Assembly: GCA_965369995.1 (NCBI GenBank)
Contig: CBDURO010000001.1
Span: forward strand, 10,260 to 74,259
Direction: 5' to 3'
DNA from: an uncultured bacterium
GTDB lineage: Bacteria > Fidelibacterota > Marinisomatia > Marinisomatales > JAHJCW01
DNA: 64,000 bases
Below the pieces are notes generated by a model. That model saw nothing but the letters and a program-made list of their open reading frames with translations, did no database searches and was not told the origin of the DNA. Of the stretch, positions 5,016-56,544 are shown piece after piece; position 1 is the stretch's first letter; every line of letters begins with the position of its first letter. The translations under genes and the position numbers were made by a program.

Positions 5016-5723
5016 ATGAAATTAATTGCGATAGAAACATCAACCGATATATGTAGCATTGCCTATATTCATAATGGAGCGTGTGAAAATATTATTGAAG
5101 AAAAAATTCCAAGGCAACATGCAGAGAAATTACCATTGTTTTACGATGAATTAGTAAAACTGACCGGATTGAGATTATCTGAAATAGATGCAATTGCTGT
5201 GTCAATTGGTCCGGGTTCTTTCACCGGATTAAGAATTGGTTTAAGTTATGCAAAAGGATTAGCTTGTGGTTACAAAAAACCGATTGTGCCGGTTCCAACA
5301 ATGCAATCTCTATTACATGGAAGTGGGATTGAAGTTGGAAATGTTGCGGTAGTAATGCGTTCGCATGGGGATAAGTATTTTGTCTGGAATCAGGTGTCAG
5401 GGATCATTGGTCAGGGTTCAGGAGGCAGTAGCAGTAAATATTCACGTATTCACGTGTTAACGTGCGAAAGTGTTAATGATTTAGGAATTGATTTGCCCAA
5501 TACCAAAATTATTTACTGGAACTGTGAAAAATTGTTTGGTGAAGTTGAAAAAATGCAAAATGTTATGCCCGTAAAACCTTCAGCTAAGTGGATAGGAGAG
5601 TTAGCCTATCAAAATTATAACAAATGGGTAGTTGAAAACCCATACAAATTGGTACCGGATTATGTATCGCCTTTTAAAATCGGAAATCTGAAATCTGAAA
5701 GAAGATTTATGAGAAGATGTTAA
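5016..5723 (+). CDS. tsaB: tRNA t6A37 biosynthesis protein TsaB (YeaZ family)
   Basis: 235 aa. N-terminal KLIAIETST and GPGSFTGLRIG motifs. The central variable region and the last ~14 codons are encoded by repeat-family-like DNA (see findings). Confidence 0.85.
   Translation: MKLIAIETSTDICSIAYIHNGACENIIEEKIPRQHAEKLPLFYDELVKLTGLRLSEIDAIAVSIGPGSFTGLRIGLSYAKGLACGYKKPIVPVPTMQSLLHGSGIEVGNVAVVMRSHGDKYFVWNQVSGIIGQGSGGSSSKYSRIHVLTCESVNDLGIDLPNTKIIYWNCEKLFGEVEKMQNVMPVKPSAKWIGELAYQNYNKWVVENPYKLVPDYVSPFKIGNLKSERRFMRRC
5388..5483 (+). repeat. Repeat-family-like module set inside the tsaB coding sequence
   Basis: ATCAGGTGTCAGGG...GCAGTAGCAGTA (5389-5436) parallels ATCAGGGGTCAGAGG...GCAGTAGCAGTA (2839-2872). 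It is followed by ATTCACGT ATTCACGT GTTAACGTG, which resembles the GTTAACGTG core. The reading frame is maintained throughout. Confidence 0.5.
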
Positions 5724-5935
5724 TGTATTCAGGTGTTAATTAGTTTAAGAATGGTTCTGTGAATGACGACTAATGACTACTTAATAATCATCAATGACAG
5801 CGCAGCGTATCCATTTTTACAACTTAACTCTTTTAACTTGGGACTTAAAACTTCTAAATAAATTTGTATATTCCCGGTCAATAAAAATTATAAAATATCA
5901 ATATTCAATAGTAAATAGACAATAGAAAATATTCA
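5682..5935 (+). repeat. Degenerate short-unit repeat modules at the tsaB 3' end and tsaB-accD spacer
   Basis: GGAAATCTGAAATCTGAAAG resembles AGAAATCAGAAATCTGAG of copy 1. AATGAC-type units lie at 5761-5800. A heptamer array CAATATT CAATAGT AAATAGA CAATAGA AAATATT lies at 5899-5933, and it shares AATAGTAAATAG with 2899-2910. Confidence 0.45.
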
Positions 5936-12808: not shown

Positions 12809-13507
12809 ATGTTAATAAATTTGTGGTCTGATTACTCACCTAAATTTTCAGAAAAATTTATAATAGCCGGTTTGACAAATCAGTATTATCCTTTTTCATC
12901 TGAAAATGATAGAGTAGAATTCGCTAAAATATTAAAGTTAGATTATAGAAATATTGTTATTCCTGAGCAGCTCCATTCTAACAATGTGGTTTGCTGTACT
13001 AAAGCTGGAAATATTATTGGTACTGATGGAATAGTTACAAATAAGAAAGATTTAATATTATCAATTCAGGTAGCGGATTGTATTCCTATTTATCTTTTTG
13101 ATAAACAAAATTATAATATCGGCTTAATACATGCCGGGTGGCGTGGGGTAATAGCCGGTATTATTGAAAACAGTATAAAACAAATGAAAGAGTTGGATTC
13201 AAAACCAATTGATATAGAAGTTTTGCTTGGTCCATCTATTAGACAATGTTGTTTTGAAGTTGGTTCCGAGGTTGGAAAATTATTTAATGGTAAATTTAAA
13301 AAAATCGGCAAAAGTGATAGAACGCATTTAGACTTGCAAAGTGCTGTTATTGACAAATTAATAAATATGAATATTCAATATAAAAATATTATTGATATCA
13401 AAGAATGTACAAGTTGCTCAGCTCAATATCACTCCTTTCGAAGAGACGGTGACAAAGCCGGTAGAATGATTGCTATGATGGGGTGGCGCCAGAAATCAGA
13501 AATCTGA
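12809..13507 (+). CDS. pgeF: PgeF/YfiH family (DUF152) purine-nucleoside phosphorylase / peptidoglycan editing factor
   Basis: 232 aa. QLHSNNVV, VADCIPI and HAGWRG motifs typical of the family. The stop codon lies inside repeat copy 1. Confidence 0.8.
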   Translation: MLINLWSDYSPKFSEKFIIAGLTNQYYPFSSENDRVEFAKILKLDYRNIVIPEQLHSNNVVCCTKAGNIIGTDGIVTNKKDLILSIQVADCIPIYLFDKQNYNIGLIHAGWRGVIAGIIENSIKQMKELDSKPIDIEVLLGPSIRQCCFEVGSEVGKLFNGKFKKIGKSDRTHLDLQSAVIDKLINMNIQYKNIIDIKECTSCSAQYHSFRRDGDKAGRMIAMMGWRQKSEI

Positions 13508-13680
13508 GATTAGAAATTAGGGATTGAAAATATCAGTGGTAGTTGCAGGATTTTAAGAGGGAGAAAAGGTGAGAGGGAGCATTGGGGAATTGGATTAATG
13601 GAGTTAATGGGTTAACGTGTTCACAACTCACGTTTTTTCAATTAATGACAATTAATGACCACTAATAAGTACCAATAACA
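13491..13680 (+). repeat. Mosaic intergenic repeat element, copy 1 (unclassified family)
   Basis: Collinear with 39323-39480. Shared blocks are GATTAGAAATTAG, ATTGGGGAATTG, TAATGGAGTT, the exact 31-mer ATGGGTTAACGTGTTCACAACTCACGTTTTT (13607-13637 = 39417-39447) and CAATTAATGACA. The core forms the hairpin AACGTG-N9-CACGTT followed by a T-run. Confidence 0.85.
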
Positions 13681-13753
13681 CCAGATATATTAACCTTTAA
13701 TCTTCAAAAACACATAAAATCCATATAAATTTCATTCAAATTAAACAGTAAAT

Positions 13754-37471: not shown

Positions 37472-38056
37472 ATGCGACAAGAATTATTACGGAAAACTAT
37501 TCATTTAAGTGCTAATTCCTTAATTCCATTAGCATATCTGTTTTTAAATATTCCAAAAATTTGGATGGCTATATTAATTGGTATTGCTTCAGTCGTGTTT
37601 GTCATGATTGATATTAGACGAACCCGGAATAGTTGGCTATCAAAGATATTTGCAAAATTATTTAACAGCATGCTTAGATCACACGAGCTTGAAGGGAAAT
37701 TAACCGGTGCAAGTTACGTTTTAATCGGGTCTTTTATTTCAATTGCAATTTTTCCGAAAGAGATTGCGGTCTTGGCATTATTATTTACCGCTATTGGCGA
37801 TACTGCCGCAGCATTATATGGCAGAAAATTTGGTAAGCTTAGAATTTGGAACAAAACATTGGAAGGTTCTATAGCCGGTTTAATTGCATGTACAATAATT
37901 GCATTATTTTTTCCTCAGATTCCGAATATTATAAAATTCAGCGGAGCATTTGCAGCAATGTTCATTGAACTGTTACCAATTAATATAGATGATAATTTGC
38001 GAATCCCACTTTTTTCGGGAATAGTTATGTATATTATATCTAATTTGATTATATGA
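37472..38056 (+). CDS. Polyprenol/diacylglycerol kinase-type CTP-dependent membrane enzyme (SEC59/DGK1/VTE5-CdsA superfamily)
   Basis: 194 aa with 5-6 TM segments. GDTAAALYGRKFGK motif. Confidence 0.55.
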   Translation: MRQELLRKTIHLSANSLIPLAYLFLNIPKIWMAILIGIASVVFVMIDIRRTRNSWLSKIFAKLFNSMLRSHELEGKLTGASYVLIGSFISIAIFPKEIAVLALLFTAIGDTAAALYGRKFGKLRIWNKTLEGSIAGLIACTIIALFFPQIPNIIKFSGAFAAMFIELLPINIDDNLRIPLFSGIVMYIISNLII

Positions 38057-39330
38057 TTGATCGACAAGGATCAAATAAGGTAGAACGCGCTATATTGGTT
38101 GGAGTTATTCATGGCAAACTTGATGAACTCATTATAGATGAACATCTTGATGAAATGGAATTGCTTGCTGATACCGCTGGAGCTGATGTTGTTGGACGTG
38201 TTACACAGCGCTTAAATAAAATTAATCCCGCCTATTTTGTTGGCAAAGGCAAAGCCGAACAAATTATGAATCAAGCCAAAGAGTTGGGGGTTTCCCTAGT
38301 CATTTTTGATGAGGACTTAAGTCCGGCTCAAACTAAGAATTTCCAATCGCTTAGCGAAAATATAAAAGTTATCGATCGCAGCGCCTTAATTTTGGACATA
38401 TTTCAAAAACATGCCAAAACTAAAGAAGCAAAAACTCAAGTAGAATTAGCGCATTTACAGTATTTATTACCGCGTCTTACAAGAATGTGGACGCATTTGG
38501 AACGGCAAATGGGAGGAATCGGAACAAGAGCAGGAGCAGGGGAAAAACAGATTGAAGTTGACCGCAGATTAATTGGACAAAGGATTGCTAAGCTGAAAAA
38601 AGAGTTAACCAAAATTGAAAAGGAAAGGAAAACACAAAGTCAGCGGCGAAAAGATCAATTTCGTGTATCATTAGTTGGTTATACAAATGCCGGTAAATCA
38701 ACATTAATGAACGCCATCACCGGGGCTAATATGTATATCCGTGATCAATTATTTGCTACCCTCGATACAACTATACGGTCGACAGTGATAGATAGTGAAC
38801 ATGAGATTTTATTAAGTGATACAGTCGGATTCATCCGCAAACTTCCACATCATTTAGTTGCAAGTTTCAGAAGTACCTTACAAGAAGTGTTGGAAGCCGA
38901 TTTAATTTTAATTGTATTGGATGTATCATCTCCACAGGTATTAGAACATCTTAATACAATTACCGAAGTATTAACAGAGCTTGGAGCTGACAAGAATACA
39001 TCGCTAATCGTATTAAACAAAATTGACACTATTGAAGAGGATGGCAGGATAGCCTATTTAAAACGAAAATTTCCAAATGGTATATTAATTTCAGCAAAAA
39101 ATCATTTGCGAATTGATAATTTGCTTGAATCAATTAAAAAAATAATTGATCGAGGATTTACTACAACCGATGTCCATTTTTCCTTTGAACAAGCTAAAGA
39201 AACAGCCGAAGCCCAGAAAGGTGTAACTATTTTAGAACGTGAGTATGATGAGAATGGTGTACATTTAAAAATTCGTGGACCTGTTAAACGTATCAATCAA
39301 ATTTTAAGAAAGCAAGGGAGTAGGGATTAG
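38053..39330 (+). CDS. hflX: GTPase HflX
   Basis: 425 aa. HflX N-domain, then G1 GYTNAGKST, G3 DTVGF and G4 NKID. The stop codon lies inside repeat copy 2. Confidence 0.95.
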   Translation: MIDRQGSNKVERAILVGVIHGKLDELIIDEHLDEMELLADTAGADVVGRVTQRLNKINPAYFVGKGKAEQIMNQAKELGVSLVIFDEDLSPAQTKNFQSLSENIKVIDRSALILDIFQKHAKTKEAKTQVELAHLQYLLPRLTRMWTHLERQMGGIGTRAGAGEKQIEVDRRLIGQRIAKLKKELTKIEKERKTQSQRRKDQFRVSLVGYTNAGKSTLMNAITGANMYIRDQLFATLDTTIRSTVIDSEHEILLSDTVGFIRKLPHHLVASFRSTLQEVLEADLILIVLDVSSPQVLEHLNTITEVLTELGADKNTSLIVLNKIDTIEEDGRIAYLKRKFPNGILISAKNHLRIDNLLESIKKIIDRGFTTTDVHFSFEQAKETAEAQKGVTILEREYDENGVHLKIRGPVKRINQILRKQGSRD

Positions 39331-39510
39331 AAATTAGTGGCAGATTGCAGGAGCTTGAAAAGGAGAAGAGGTGATGGGGAGTATTGGGGAATTGAAGTGT
39401 TAGAGTAATGGAGTTGATGGGTTAACGTGTTCACAACTCACGTTTTTACAATTAATGACAACCTAATAACTACTTAATGACTGTTATTTACTGCGTAGCG
39501 AATGACACTA
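39323..39510 (+). repeat. Mosaic intergenic repeat element, copy 2
   Basis: See copy 1. It begins at GGGATTAG, which contains the hflX TAG stop. It also shares the exact 20-mer TTTTTACAATTAATGACAAC (39443-39462) with 47087-47106. Confidence 0.85.
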
Positions 39511-39638
39511 ATTTTAAGAATGGTAGAAAGATTGAATGATTGGTTGAAAAAAAGCATATTCTACGTTTTAAATATTTGCGTTTCACACATCACTGATATT
39601 CCATCATCCATAAACCCTCAACCACCAAACATAATTTA

Positions 39639-39796
39639 TCCGTACCAGGCGTTTTTCAGGACCGCTAATGATTAACGGTGGACGCCTCCCGATTGCAGCA
39701 AACTTCCCTGACGAGAGGGCATGTTTTTTGTAAGCGAAGTACAGCTTCCTATTGATTATTACTTGTAGATCCTAAAAAAACTAATCCTGGTACGGA
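39639..39796. other. 158-bp element bounded by inverted repeats between convergent genes (candidate structured sRNA or MITE)
   Basis: Perfect 11-bp inverted repeat TCCGTACCAGG (39639-39649) / CCTGGTACGGA (39786-39796). It can be extended by GTTTTT/AAAAAC (39651-56 / 39776-81) and AGGA/TCCT (39658-61 / 39770-73). Internal hairpins are AGGCGT...ACGCCT (39647-52 / 39682-87) and ACCG-N11-CGGT. The element is visibly more GC-rich than its flanks, has no ORF, and matches no RNA family that I recognise. Confidence 0.4.
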
Positions 39797-39867
39797 AATT
39801 GTTAAAAAGCTTAACAAAAATTAGTACAAAAAGTGAGACAAATCAATTCTAATCGAATTATTCATTG

Positions 39868-41097: not shown

Positions 41098-41199
41098 AGA
41101 AAAAAAATTAGCCACGAAAAGGCATAAAAGACACAAAAATCTATAAAAAGAAATAGTCTTTTCCAGCTAACTTTAAATTATTCAGATTAATTTCTACAA

Positions 41200-41239
41200 C
41201 CCCTCTTTCCCCTCCTAATTTAGGAGGGGATGAAAGGGG
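41200..41239. promoter_or_regulatory. Two-tier GC-rich palindrome in the divergent DAACS / SSS promoter region
   Basis: CCCCT (41200-04) cttt CCCCTCCT (41209-16) aattt AGGAGGGG (41222-29) atgaa AGGGG (41235-39). The inner stem is 8 bp and perfect, and the outer stem is 5 bp. Confidence 0.5.
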
Positions 41240-41299
41240 ATGTATGAGATGATTTTTATTGGTATGGATGACTAAATTCACATTATTTATGAGGAAGCA

Positions 41300-45822: not shown

Positions 45823-46437
45823 ATGGCTAAAAAATCAATATCATTAAGTAAAGAATTTTTAAAGGGCTTATGGGATGAAAACCCTGTCCTGCGGATGCTT
45901 TTGGGACTTTGTCCAACGTTGGCTGTTACAAATTCTGCAATCAATGGATTAGCGATGGGGCTTGCTACAACCTTTGTATTGTTAAGCTCGAGCGTTATTA
46001 TATCACTTTTGCGAAAAGTGATTCCACATCAAGTAAGAATTGCCGGCTACATTGTAATTATCGCAACATTTGTAACTGTAGCGGATAGATATATGGCGGC
46101 ATTTTTACCGGAAATAAGTAAGGCATTGGGTCCTTATGTGCCATTAATTGTTGTCAACTGCGTTATATTGGGAAGGCAAGAGGCATTTGCCTCTAAAAAT
46201 GGTGTTGGGCGTTCAATAATTGATGCACTAGGGATGGGATCAGGATTTATTTTAGTACTGTTAGTATTGGGAAGTATTCGTGAATTATTAGGCTCAGCTA
46301 CTATTTTTAATTTACAGATTTTAGGTGATTGGTTTAATCCATGGATGATCATGATATTACCACCAGGAGCGTTTTTAACTTTAGGTTTATTAATTGGATT
46401 AGGTAATTGGTTGAATGAAAGGAAGGTTAAAATATGA
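45823..46437 (+). CDS. rnfE: Rnf complex subunit E
   Basis: 204 aa. NPVLRMLLGLCPTLAVT motif. Polytopic. Confidence 0.92.
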   Translation: MAKKSISLSKEFLKGLWDENPVLRMLLGLCPTLAVTNSAINGLAMGLATTFVLLSSSVIISLLRKVIPHQVRIAGYIVIIATFVTVADRYMAAFLPEISKALGPYVPLIVVNCVILGRQEAFASKNGVGRSIIDALGMGSGFILVLLVLGSIRELLGSATIFNLQILGDWFNPWMIMILPPGAFLTLGLLIGLGNWLNERKVKI

Positions 46438-47012
46438 ACCTATTACTATTATTCATCTCAGCAGCAATCGTAAATAATTTTGTTCTTACATATTTTTTAG
46501 GAATCTGCCCATTTGTTGGGGTTTCCAAAAGAGTTTCATCGGCGGTAAGTATGGGTTTGGCTGTAATGTTTGTAATGACAATAACAGCTGCAGTGACATG
46601 GTTGATTTACCATTTATTACTTGTACCATATCACATCGAAATTCTAGAATACGTATCTTTTATTTTAGTGATTGCCTCCCTTGTTCAATTAGTAGAAATG
46701 TTTATTAAGAAGGTCAGCAAACCGTTATATGATACATTAGGTATTTATTTACCGCTAATCACAACTAATTGTGCGATACTTGGGTTGGCATTATTCTCAG
46801 TTCTAAGAGATTACAGTTTCGCTGAAAGCATGGTTTTCGGTGTTGGCGCCGGTGCCGGATTTACTTTAGCATTGGTGATTATGGCAGGAATCCGTGAAGA
46901 GTTAGAACTCTCAAATATTCCTAAACCTTTTAAAGGAGCAGGAATAACAATGATAGTGGCAGGAAGTTTAGCATTGGCATTTATGGGATTTGCCGGATTG
47001 ATTTCAATGTGA
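46434..47012 (+). CDS. rnfA: Rnf complex subunit A
   Basis: 192 aa. FLGICPFVGVS motif. Polytopic. ATGA overlap with rnfE. Confidence 0.92.
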   Translation: MNLLLLFISAAIVNNFVLTYFLGICPFVGVSKRVSSAVSMGLAVMFVMTITAAVTWLIYHLLLVPYHIEILEYVSFILVIASLVQLVEMFIKKVSKPLYDTLGIYLPLITTNCAILGLALFSVLRDYSFAESMVFGVGAGAGFTLALVIMAGIREELELSNIPKPFKGAGITMIVAGSLALAFMGFAGLISM

Positions 47013-47106
47013 CCTAAGTTGATGAGTTTATGAGTATAATAGTTTATGAGTCGGACAATTGGAGTTGTGGATAAATCGAGAAGTATATTTTTACAATTAA
47101 TGACAA
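47013..47106 (+). repeat. Partial or divergent copy of the same repeat family in the rnfA-rnfB spacer
   Basis: GGAGTTGTGG resembles GGAGTTGATGG of copy 2, and the exact 20-mer TTTTTACAATTAATGACAAC is present. A different 17-nt centre replaces the hairpin core. An internal GTTTATGAGT duplication is also present. Confidence 0.6.
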
Positions 47107-47174
47107 CACAATGTTTTATTTTAAAAAAAATAGATTTTTTCAGTGTAATCTGTGAAATTTATGGTTAAACAATA

Positions 47175-55538: not shown

Positions 55539-56393
55539 GGGTAAAGTCCCAGTTTAGCCACTAATGTTGATAAATTACACATATGAAAAAGCAGTTAAAG
55601 TGTTTACGTTGTGGTTGTCAAAAACTTTACTCTGTCCGAAGAGAAAAGAAGCGTTGCAGCAGTTGTGGTTACGAATGGAAACCGGACAAATTACCTTTGC
55701 ACTTAACCCGGAAAGAATGGTCCAGAATTTTACACTGGTTTTTAAGAGGTTTACCAGTGGTTGCGATCGCACAGGAAACAGGGATTGAACGTAAGCGGAT
55801 ATTACGCGCTTTAACCTATGTAAGAATGACATTTCAGAAAGATATTCCGGATGTTTTTTCAGGTACTGTTGAGGTTGATGAAACTTATATTGGAGGACAG
55901 TGGAAAAACAAAAGACACAGTGCAAAAGCAGGTGGCAGTAAGCGCGGTCGAGGGACTTCCAAGACACCTGTATTTGGTATTTTATGCCGTGGTGGAAAGG
56001 TATGGGCACAAGTAGTCCCTGATGTAGAAGCAAAGACATTATTACCTCTGATCTCCCGACGGGTAGAAAGGGGAAGCACGGTATGCTCTGACACATGGAA
56101 AAGTTATACCGGGGTAGCGGCTAATGGTTATGTTCACCGCTTGGTAAAACATAGTGAAGGTGAGTATAGTGATGGTAAAGGAAACCATATTAACGGCCTT
56201 GAAGGGTTCTGGGGATATCTTAAAAGAAGATTGGCTGCCAAAGGTGGAATCAGGAAGAAAAGATTGCCATTGTACTTGGCTGAATATGTTTGGAAGTATA
56301 ATCATAGAAATGATAGTATTCAATTACAGAAAAAACTCATTCTTAAACAACTTGAAAAGTAACATGTTTAGTGGCTCTTTTGGGACTTTACCC
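55539..56393 (+). mobile_element. IS1595-family insertion sequence (855 bp)
   Basis: Terminal inverted repeats GGGTAAAGTCCCAgtttAGCCACTAA (left, 55539-55564) and the complement of 56368-56393 match at 22 of 26 positions (13 + 9 exact). A 7-bp direct repeat ATAATTA flanks the element (55532-55538 and 56394-56400). It carries a single transposase ORF and is visibly more GC-rich than its surroundings. Confidence 0.85.
55583..56362 (+). CDS. IS1595/ISXO2-like DDE transposase with N-terminal zinc ribbon
   Basis: 259 aa. CLRCGC...CSSCG zinc ribbon, then VEVDETYIGG, VCSDTWKSY and NHINGLEGFWGYLKRRL, the DDE_Tnp_IS1595 pattern. Confidence 0.88.
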   Translation: MKKQLKCLRCGCQKLYSVRREKKRCSSCGYEWKPDKLPLHLTRKEWSRILHWFLRGLPVVAIAQETGIERKRILRALTYVRMTFQKDIPDVFSGTVEVDETYIGGQWKNKRHSAKAGGSKRGRGTSKTPVFGILCRGGKVWAQVVPDVEAKTLLPLISRRVERGSTVCSDTWKSYTGVAANGYVHRLVKHSEGEYSDGKGNHINGLEGFWGYLKRRLAAKGGIRKKRLPLYLAEYVWKYNHRNDSIQLQKKLILKQLEK

Positions 56394-56413: not shown

Positions 56414-56444
56414 AAAAAACCCCCGTTATTTGCGGGGGTTTTTT
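56414..56444 (+). terminator. Rho-independent terminator, probably the original htrA terminator displaced by the IS
   Basis: A-run, CCCCCG (56420-25), 7-nt loop, CGGGGG (56433-38), then TTTTTT. Confidence 0.8.
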
Positions 56445-56544
56445 ATTAATAAACAAATTACTGTAATCGTTGGAAAAATTTTGTATTTGAACTAACTTCG
56501 ACGTCTAAAAAATTTAGAGAAAGATTCGACAAATTACATATTCA

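Follow-up and report, generated by a model that had tools for sequence, protein, structure and literature searches.

A family of short repeats was found in a 64,000-nt stretch of DNA from an uncultured Fidelibacterota bacterium (contig CBDURO010000001.1, positions 10,260 to 74,259; hereafter the window), where its copies lie in the spacers after pgeF, hflX, tsaB and rnfA. The reading that we favour, with somewhat better than even confidence, is that these are clade-specific, small (about 130-210 nt), non-coding, dispersed mosaic repeats located at gene 3' ends, in a narrow Fidelibacterota/Marinimicrobia clade. The window has a guanine-plus-cytosine (GC) content of 34%, with 52 of its 56 called open reading frames (ORFs) on the plus strand and most of them tightly packed, and the family accounts for most of its unusually long spacers.

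Copies of the repeat in the window and in relatives

The copies and the parts of the two longest ones are as follows.

13487..13690, plus strand: copy A, full length, between pgeF and uppP
13490-13520: heptamer array of copy A (CAGAAAT twice, CTGAGAT, TAGAAAT and further units), overlapping the last codons and stop of pgeF
~13534-13580: purine-rich block of copy A
~13581-13606: ATTGGGGAATTG / TAATGGAGTT segment of copy A
13607-13637, plus strand: core of copy A, an exact 31-mer with a weak inverted repeat (AACGTG-N9-CACGTT) and a T6 run
13639-13666: CAATTAATGA decamer array of copy A
39311..39510, plus strand: copy B, full length, in the spacer that separates hflX from a convergent 6S RNA candidate
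39417..39447, plus strand: core of copy B, the exact 31-mer of copy A, with a T5 run
5677..5810, plus strand: copy D, short and degenerate, between tsaB and accD
47050..47112, plus strand: copy C, partial and decayed, between rnfA (46434-47012) and rnfB (47175 onwards)

Copies A and B follow PgeF (12809-13507) and HflX (38053-39330), respectively, and were collinear over 156 nt with 80.1% identity (E 3e-34), the mean column identity of their MAFFT alignment being 79%. A sequence-only reading of the window had described these two spacers as matching block for block, and the alignment bears this out: the blocks that it placed there (GATTAGAAATTAG, AGTGG.AG.TTGCAGGA, a purine-rich block, ATTGGGGAATTG, TAATGGAGTT and CAATTAATGACA) were all present, and the flanking genes were pgeF and hflX, as it had named them. 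The 31-mer ATGGGTTAACGTGTTCACAACTCACGTTTTT, whose recurrence it had judged to be beyond chance, was exact at 13607-13637 and 39417-39447, with no third site in the window at up to three mismatches and no match in 100 shuffles. Other parts of that reading had to be amended. Both spacer copies are real, but the window contains at least four loci instead of two; the copies do follow pgeF and hflX, but both begin within the upstream ORF and give it its last codons and stop; and copy B does not stand in front of a plus-strand gene, the 6S RNA candidate downstream of it being a convergent one on the minus strand.

An origin by segmental duplication, by chance likeness of low-complexity sequence or by assembly artefact is extremely improbable. 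Such an origin would be helped by an AT-rich, repetitive sequence and by the many 11-mers that recur by chance in the window, but neither the shuffles nor the A-B alignment fit it, and the genes around the two copies, with uppP downstream of A, are not related to each other. Segmental duplication, which the sequence-only reading had named, together with a lack of further copies, as an outcome that would undo its claim of novelty, did not hold, since the flanking genes are unrelated and there are further copies in the window (C and D) and at five loci in relatives. An assembly artefact was excluded because the same copies occur in independent assemblies from different samples (ERZ25749332, ERZ25748748, SRR22936141 and ERZ23498652). 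Copy A has the same sequence in the independent assemblies L001 and L101; L001 (ERZ25749332) is 100% identical to the window across 20.7 kb, and the window sequence is also present in L101 (ERZ25748748). Copy B is present in L091 (SRR22936141) with two mismatches in 370 nt.

The two shorter copies were assigned to the family by a perfect 20/20 match, by orthology to clearer copies and by the common module order. Copy D consists of heptamers AAATCGGAAATCTGAAATCTGAAAG within the 3' end of tsaB, AAGATTT, a degenerate core GTTAATGTATTCAGGTGTTAATTAG and a TAATGAC decamer array, in this order. It matched L102:20-130, where the full core is kept, with 83.6% identity over 55 nt (E 5e-10), and because this copy in the tsaB-accD spacer of L102 has the full core, copy D is taken as an orthologous fourth copy with a decayed core. 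Copy C matched copy B at 20 of 20 positions over TTTTTACAATTAATGACAAC, with GGAGTTGTGG before it (E 6.7e-5), its hairpin being gone; with the covariance model alone it was not significant (E 0.95). The orthologous rnfA-rnfB spacer of L089 keeps a degenerate core, AAGTGTTAATGTGTTCACAATTTGGTTTTTAAT.

Close relatives, reached through homologues of PgeF and HflX, carried copies at five loci in independent assemblies: after pgeF, tsaB, hflX, rnfA and a DNA-glycosylase gene. Three copies were found in L102 (PgeF 80% amino-acid identity), one in the tsaB-accD spacer with the full core TTAATGTGTTCACGATTCACGTTTTAACAATTAATG, another after pgeF and a tandem second one about 230 nt further on. L086 has one copy after hflX and another on the minus strand, after its minus-strand DNA-glycosylase gene, and both ends of its contig terminate in the core (..AAAGTGCTAATGTATTAACGTGTTCAT). 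The contigs of L082 and L105, also from short-read assemblies, have an end within family sequence as well, and that of L103 ends in a GC-rich module adjoining a copy. Contig breaks within copies match the behaviour of multi-copy repeats in de Bruijn assemblies, an indirect sign of a high copy number, and their coincidence with the family is relevant to the contiguity of metagenome-assembled genomes (MAGs) and to strain typing.

Module order and placement at gene 3' ends

In the multiple alignment the modules follow one another as a heptamer array (GAAATCN)n, a purine-rich block, a variable segment, an octamer-like array with the core, and ACAATTAATGAC with a decamer array. The purine-rich block, with the consensus GATTRGAAATTA(R)GTGGCAG..GCAGGA..AGGGAGAA..GGTGA..GGAG, is missing in the short forms. 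The octamer-like array NGTGTTAA terminates in the core, TTAAYGTGTTCAC..CACGTTTT, which is the best-conserved block among paralogs and orthologs: 28 bases of the 31-mer are the same in L084, and TTAAYGTGTTCA was found in every recognisable copy. At a low threshold, Tandem Repeats Finder detected degenerate tandem arrays of period 7-10 in each unusually long spacer of the window.

13490-13517 (CAGAAAT, period 7), 13591-13615 (TGGAGTTAA, period 8) and 13639-13666 (CAATTAATGA, period 10): arrays at copy A
39452-39482: array at copy B
5677-5700 (AAATCTG) and 5762-5781: arrays at copy D
47017-47051: array by copy C

Heptamer arrays were also present in relatives (L102:8040-8075, L102:8290-8320, L102:25-50 and L105:2925-2970). 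The autocorrelation of the copies peaked at lags of 7-10, with a 10-nt periodicity in the right arm. The left halves have almost no C (4 in about 110 nt, skew +0.82), with GC skews from +0.6 to +0.83, and the right halves are G-poor in three of four copies (-0.29 to -0.62), that of copy C having a skew of +0.12.

Every copy lies on the strand of its upstream gene, which for one copy in L086 is the minus strand, and the heptamer array often supplies the last codons and stop of that gene. Copy B gives hflX its last four codons and stop, the HflX protein being 421 aa in most relatives, 425 aa in the window and 432 aa in L105, in which heptamers encode the tail (..RKSEI*). The end of TsaB lies in the heptamer array of copy D, and the C-terminus of PgeF reads ..MMGWRQKSEI* in the window versus ..MMGFGRGVEN* in L083, so that the family alters the C-termini of the housekeeping proteins PgeF, HflX and TsaB between strains. 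As read from the sequence, TCTGAGATTAGAAATTAGGGATTGA closes each of the three frames with a stop codon, within about 25 nt. The downstream contexts of the copies are unrelated to one another (uppP, the convergent 6S gene, rnfB and accD).

Turnover, mobility and possible function

Copies were gained, lost, truncated and reshuffled among close relatives. The hflX-6S spacer, of about 310 nt in the window, is reduced to 12 nt in L087 and L088 (hflX 90% nucleotide identity), an empty site; L089 and L090 (86%) have an unrelated 85-nt GC-rich hairpin instead, L086 (93%) a shortened variant and L105 (88%) a heptamer array. Nearer relatives differ at this site through large rearrangements, and its occupancy is incongruent with the hflX identity tree, which implies at least two gain or loss events. 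The rnfA-rnfB spacer of the window measures 162 nt, against 22 nt in L087 (empty) and 92 nt in L089. Between pgeF and uppP, the spacer is 88.8% conserved in L084, partly visible in L082, and 471 nt long with two tandem copies in L102, while L083 has an unrelated spacer of 147 nt (41%), although the genes are about 88% identical. At the 3' end of the DNA-glycosylase gene, L086 has the element and the window a strong canonical terminator. That same L083 spacer (L083:3986-4133), unrelated overall, shows family words in order (AAGAGGTGAGGTGCGAAC..TATTTTTCAATGG) and a 9-bp hairpin of its own, AAGAGGTGA/TCACCTCTT; it is possibly what heavy deletion has left of copy A.

Fidelibacterota, also called Marinimicrobia or SAR406, are abundant, nearly all uncultured, and their genomes are regarded as compact. 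The copies would behave as selfish or near-neutral DNA, surviving only at the sites that a very compact genome can tolerate, the 3' ends of its genes. They might spread in a copy-and-paste manner, with the flanking microsatellite-like arrays recombining or undergoing gene conversion, or through a trans-acting enzyme such as a Y1 transposase; either route would differ from classical cut-and-paste transposition, which involves terminal inverted repeats and target duplications. The copies would be co-transcribed as sequence of the 3' untranslated region (3' UTR), and any terminator or RNA-stabilising activity of the core would be at best weak and secondary.

Several observations weigh against this interpretation. 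The sequence-only reading had suggested a lineage-specific non-autonomous element, of which the lineage-specific, non-coding, dispersed mosaic repeat stands, but no mobility machinery or hallmark was found. No terminal inverted repeats link the ends of A, B or D, the left ends being heptamers and the right ends decamers. Flanking repeats of A, C and D reached 8-9 of 11 positions and were matched by 23-84% of shuffles; only copy B gave a significant result, the direct repeat AATTTTAAGAA that flanks it at 39300 and 39510 being exact over 11 nt (11/11; 0/1000 shuffles). Instead of a target duplication, even this repeat could represent a module or a microhomology to the native hflX end (..CAAATTTTAA..), given that TTTAAGAATGGT recurs inside copy D. 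An origin as a miniature inverted-repeat transposable element (MITE) of the resident IS1595-family insertion sequence (IS) was rejected, since the ends of that IS, GGGTAAAGTCCCA, occur only at the IS itself. No Y1 transposase, REP-associated tyrosine transposase (RAYT; REP, repetitive extragenic palindromic sequence) or candidate binding protein was found among the window ORFs scanned (those outside ~23-27 kb and 60.3-62.9 kb). Copies C and D were not significant against the A/A'/B profile alone (E 3.2 and 6.9). The evidence covers 64 kb of the host genome and about 100 kb of close relatives.

Among the ORFs scanned in the window and in the Pfam listings of L001, L087 and L089, housekeeping genes were found plus a single IS1595 transposase, in the following element.

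55539-56393: IS1595-family IS, apparently intact (ORF 55583-56362, PF12762, E 2.7e-35), with the sole transposase seen in the window

Its terminal inverted repeats, GGGTAAAGTCCCA, are perfect over 13 bp; it is flanked by a duplication of about 7 bp, ATAATTA, and sits between a trypsin/PDZ (HtrA-like) protease gene and the strong terminator of that gene (~56418-56445).

The conservation of copy A also bears against the near-neutral reading. Copy A and its L084 ortholog differ by six mismatches in 139 nt (13508-13646; 95.7% identity), with only one in the uppP-proximal 68 nt, whereas identity between the window and L084 at fourfold sites was 81.5% in pgeF, 60% in uppP and 69.5% pooled over five genes. 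Conservation above that of fourfold sites resembles purifying selection and could mean that the copy has a function and is not junk. It is equally explicable by a recombination mosaic, because identity along the pgeF-uppP locus swings from 76% to 98% per 100 nt. As for pgeF itself (12809-13507), its comparison with L084 and L083 gave 83-87% amino-acid identity versus 80-81.5% at fourfold sites, the protein diverging nearly as fast, and its neighbours gave 85-97% amino-acid and 54-72% fourfold identity. Such a pattern points to a relaxed constraint on PgeF or else to a recombination tract that spans pgeF and the spacer.

A rival reading is a functional 3'-end cassette under selection at gene ends, either an intrinsic terminator or a REP-like stabiliser of mRNA 3' ends, acting through the core hairpin and T-run or through a longer G.U-rich hairpin that ends in the U-run and joins the purine block to the core's 3' side; we consider this unlikely. 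In its favour, the hairpin is followed by a T5-6 run on the gene strand in A, B and L084, the core is better conserved than its flanks, copy A is conserved between species as just described, a GC-rich canonical hairpin takes the place of the element after hflX in L089, and the window has a strong terminator where L086 has the element. The stability of the hairpin does not match such a role: the AACGTG-N9-CACGTT stem of copy A with its flanks reached -7.2 kcal/mol (z -1.2) and is not part of the minimum-energy fold of copy B, whereas true terminators of the window reached -23.9 and -22.6 kcal/mol (z about -6). Of the features of an intrinsic terminator, the U-run is present and the stable GC-rich stem-loop is not, and a terminator scan made no call in the spacers of copies A and B. 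C, D, L089 and L102-A1 have a degraded core hairpin or none, and the first three lack the 3' half of the stem. A terminator role is doubtful for copy C in particular, as it sits within the rnf operon, where a terminator would be harmful, and the empty site of L087 shows that the element is dispensable. The earlier statement that each copy places a terminator-like hairpin after its gene is therefore not sustained.

Whole-element folds were inconsistent, with z values of -3.3 for A, +1.1 for B, -0.4 for L084, and -1.2 and +0.5 for L102, and minus-strand folds were no better than plus-strand ones. RNAalifold applied to the four long copies (A, A', B and L102-A1) predicted that the purine block pairs with the 3' side of the core in a helix of 19 pairs, all of them kept, with one compensatory change from C-G to A-U, which speaks for a cassette of this kind; the covariation was not significant, however, 148 of 500 shuffles reaching the same score. 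With no consistent fold and no significant covariation, the suggestion of a shared 3'-UTR or small-RNA module was not supported. A long hairpin across the whole element was likewise rejected as a family feature, because folds and z-scores vary by copy.

A structured small RNA, or a cis-regulatory leader of the downstream gene, is very improbable. Copy A does fold better than its shuffles, and the purine-rich block carries Shine-Dalgarno-like and GGA motifs. Opposed to this, no Rfam match was obtained even at E 10, the fold of copy B was worse than its shuffles, modules are gained and lost between copies, and the downstream contexts are unrelated. The candidate small ORFs in copy A (33 codons on the minus strand and 26 codons on the plus strand) were discarded, both being broken in copy B as read from the sequence, and so was a CsrA-type decoy, GGA not being enriched over base composition.

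The core could instead be an oriented DNA-level site for a nucleoid-associated protein, a recombinase or a regulator, which would recognise GTTAAC and the AACGTG-N9-CACGTT dyad together with 10-bp-phased AATTAAT tracts, in the manner of the IHF (integration host factor) sites in some bacterial interspersed mosaic elements (BIMEs) or of the recognition hairpins of Y1 transposases (RAYT / IS200-IS605); we regard this as improbable. The strong conservation of the core, its dyad symmetry, the periodicity of the right arm and the uniform orientation of the copies would all fit. Y1-transposase (IS200/IS605) elements have neither inverted terminal repeats nor target duplications, and the lack of both in the family is compatible with single-strand Y1 transposition. 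However, no Y1 transposase or binding-protein candidate appeared in the scan described above, L089, C and D have not kept the 3' half of the dyad, and the cores are not inverted doublets: neither nhmmer nor the covariance model detected an inverted partner on either strand, cores being single or, in L102, in direct tandem. The core carries a dyad of 6 bp, and the family counts four loci in 64 kb plus the copies in relatives.

In a last reading, the family might be a functional, oriented 3'-end cassette, used or tolerated by the host as one unit, with ORF stops in three frames and a conserved purine arm that pairs with the core and U-run through G.U pairs, hence in the sense RNA only, or it might be a new kind of mobile DNA that homes to last codons by means of its heptamers, without terminal inverted repeats or target duplications. 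We give it a slender chance, kept alive by the 95.7% identity of copy A over 139 nt and by the 19-pair helix of the four long copies. If functional, or if moving by a new route, the family would add a type of element targeted to gene 3' ends; on present evidence it is one more lineage-specific intergenic repeat.

Range, known families and other features of the window

The family appeared to be confined to close relatives. The best HflX relatives among the GTDB representative genomes were Fidelibacterota / Candidatus Neomarinimicrobiota MAGs with 59-68% amino-acid identity, which places the window in that phylum, Fidelibacterota being the new name of Marinimicrobia/SAR406 (PMC11652737). The core was absent from 185,579 GTDB representative genomes and from IMG/VR viral contigs, a 25-mer of it from JGI metagenomes, and blastn gave no match in phage and plasmid records. 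A degenerate core had seven matches in JGI metagenomes, only one of them related (L094, the organism of L089), the others being chance matches with unrelated flanks. Rfam 15 gave no hit at the gathering threshold over the whole window, and at E<=10 yielded only snoRNA noise in the element regions. Profile hidden Markov model and covariance model searches matched only relatives with a PgeF amino-acid identity of at least about 80%; no family match was obtained in L002-L008, the hflX loci of more distant Fidelibacterota, nor in 1.15 Mb of retrieved sequence, and contigs bearing the end genes of the window added no sequence beyond it. A literature search found no repeat family described for Fidelibacterota/Marinimicrobia. 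These searches agree with the earlier view that the repeat is unlike known families.

The family resembles three groups of repeats, REP/BIME, MITEs and short tandemly repeated repetitive sequences (STRRs), but only by analogy, as it fails the defining tests of each, namely inverted doublets, terminal inverted repeats with target duplications, and repeat units. The REP, BIME and REPIN sequences of Proteobacteria are similar in being short extragenic repeats that cluster at gene 3' ends, in their mosaic build from a small imperfect palindrome and short motifs, in an occupancy that varies by strain and in lacking terminal inverted repeats or target duplications. REPINs are defined by REPs arranged as inverted doublets that form a hairpin (PMC3116915). 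In contrast, the palindrome of our family is just 6 bp with a 9-nt loop, inverted doublets are absent and no RAYT was seen in the ORFs scanned; the family is largely made of 7-10-nt tandem arrays, its left end invades the ORF, and its host belongs to another phylum.

MITEs such as Correia, RUP and Nezha are also non-coding, dispersed elements of 100-200 nt whose presence varies in relatives and which can give ORF stops, but the family has no terminal inverted repeats, no consistent target duplication and no kinship to the IS1595-family element of the window. Rickettsia palindromic elements (RPEs) are likewise small repeats able to join coding sequence; they insert in frame inside ORFs as long palindromes, whereas the family replaces only the last few codons.

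Cyanobacterial STRRs are tandem heptamers (CCCCAGT and the like) in which small dispersed repeats are nested. They share with the family intergenic tandem heptamers, conserved non-tandem segments and restriction to a lineage, and dispersed intergenic tandem heptamers of this type occur in the window and in relatives. The family differs from them by its GAAATCN unit, its fixed module order and its conserved core of about 30 nt, as well as by a strict co-orientation with the upstream gene, the overlap with the stop codon and a Fidelibacterota host of 34% GC. As the unit sequence differs, the likeness is one of analogy, not homology. Small dispersed repeats are mentioned in PMC2884548.

Other features were noted in the window and in relatives, two of them downstream of copy B.

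39511..39638: second filler module, lying between copy B and the 6S candidate's 3' end
39633-39801, minus strand: 6S (SsrS) RNA candidate, convergent with hflX (RF00013, 33.1 bits with a gathering threshold of 46.4, E 5e-5, full-length model match)

The filler module is G-rich and then C-rich, like the family copies, and is not in the empty site of L087; it has no significant similarity to the repeat family. The sequence of the 6S candidate is conserved directly after hflX in L002, L003, L087, L089 and L091. This suggests that the linkage of hflX and ssrS is conserved across Fidelibacterota and that the Rfam model under-scores this lineage.

A second short repeat, AGGGATCAGGGGTCAG..GCAGTAGCAGTA, occurs at 2835-2872 and 5399-5436 (84.6% identity over 39 nt, E 1e-3); the first copy lies in the divergent spacer upstream of a PglZ response-regulator gene and the second inside the tsaB ORF (residues ~128-140, GIIGQGSGGSSS). 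The tsaB copy is followed by period-8 arrays, TATTCACG / ACGTGTTA (5439-5476), which contain GTTAACGTG, and the contig of L101 starts at about 2862 in window coordinates, within this repeat. GC-rich, hairpin-forming filler adjoins AT-rich modules at 2925-2985 in the window and at L102:8222-8290 and L102:10420-10590 (for example CCGCCGTAGCCTTGGCGTAGG, and CCGCCAAGGCGG in L102), and is possibly a separate GC-rich repeat family of the clade. The guaA-glmS spacer, of 16 nt in the window, comprises in L102 223 nt of ACGAAT-type units forming a long imperfect palindrome. Finally, an imperfect palindrome, CCCCTCTTTCCCCTCC..GGAGGGGATGAAAGGGG, lies at 41195-41244 between the divergent genes of a GltP/DctA-type transporter (minus strand) and a sodium:solute symporter (plus strand); its spacer is 82-86% conserved in L087 and L089, and the palindrome is a possible shared operator or bidirectional element.

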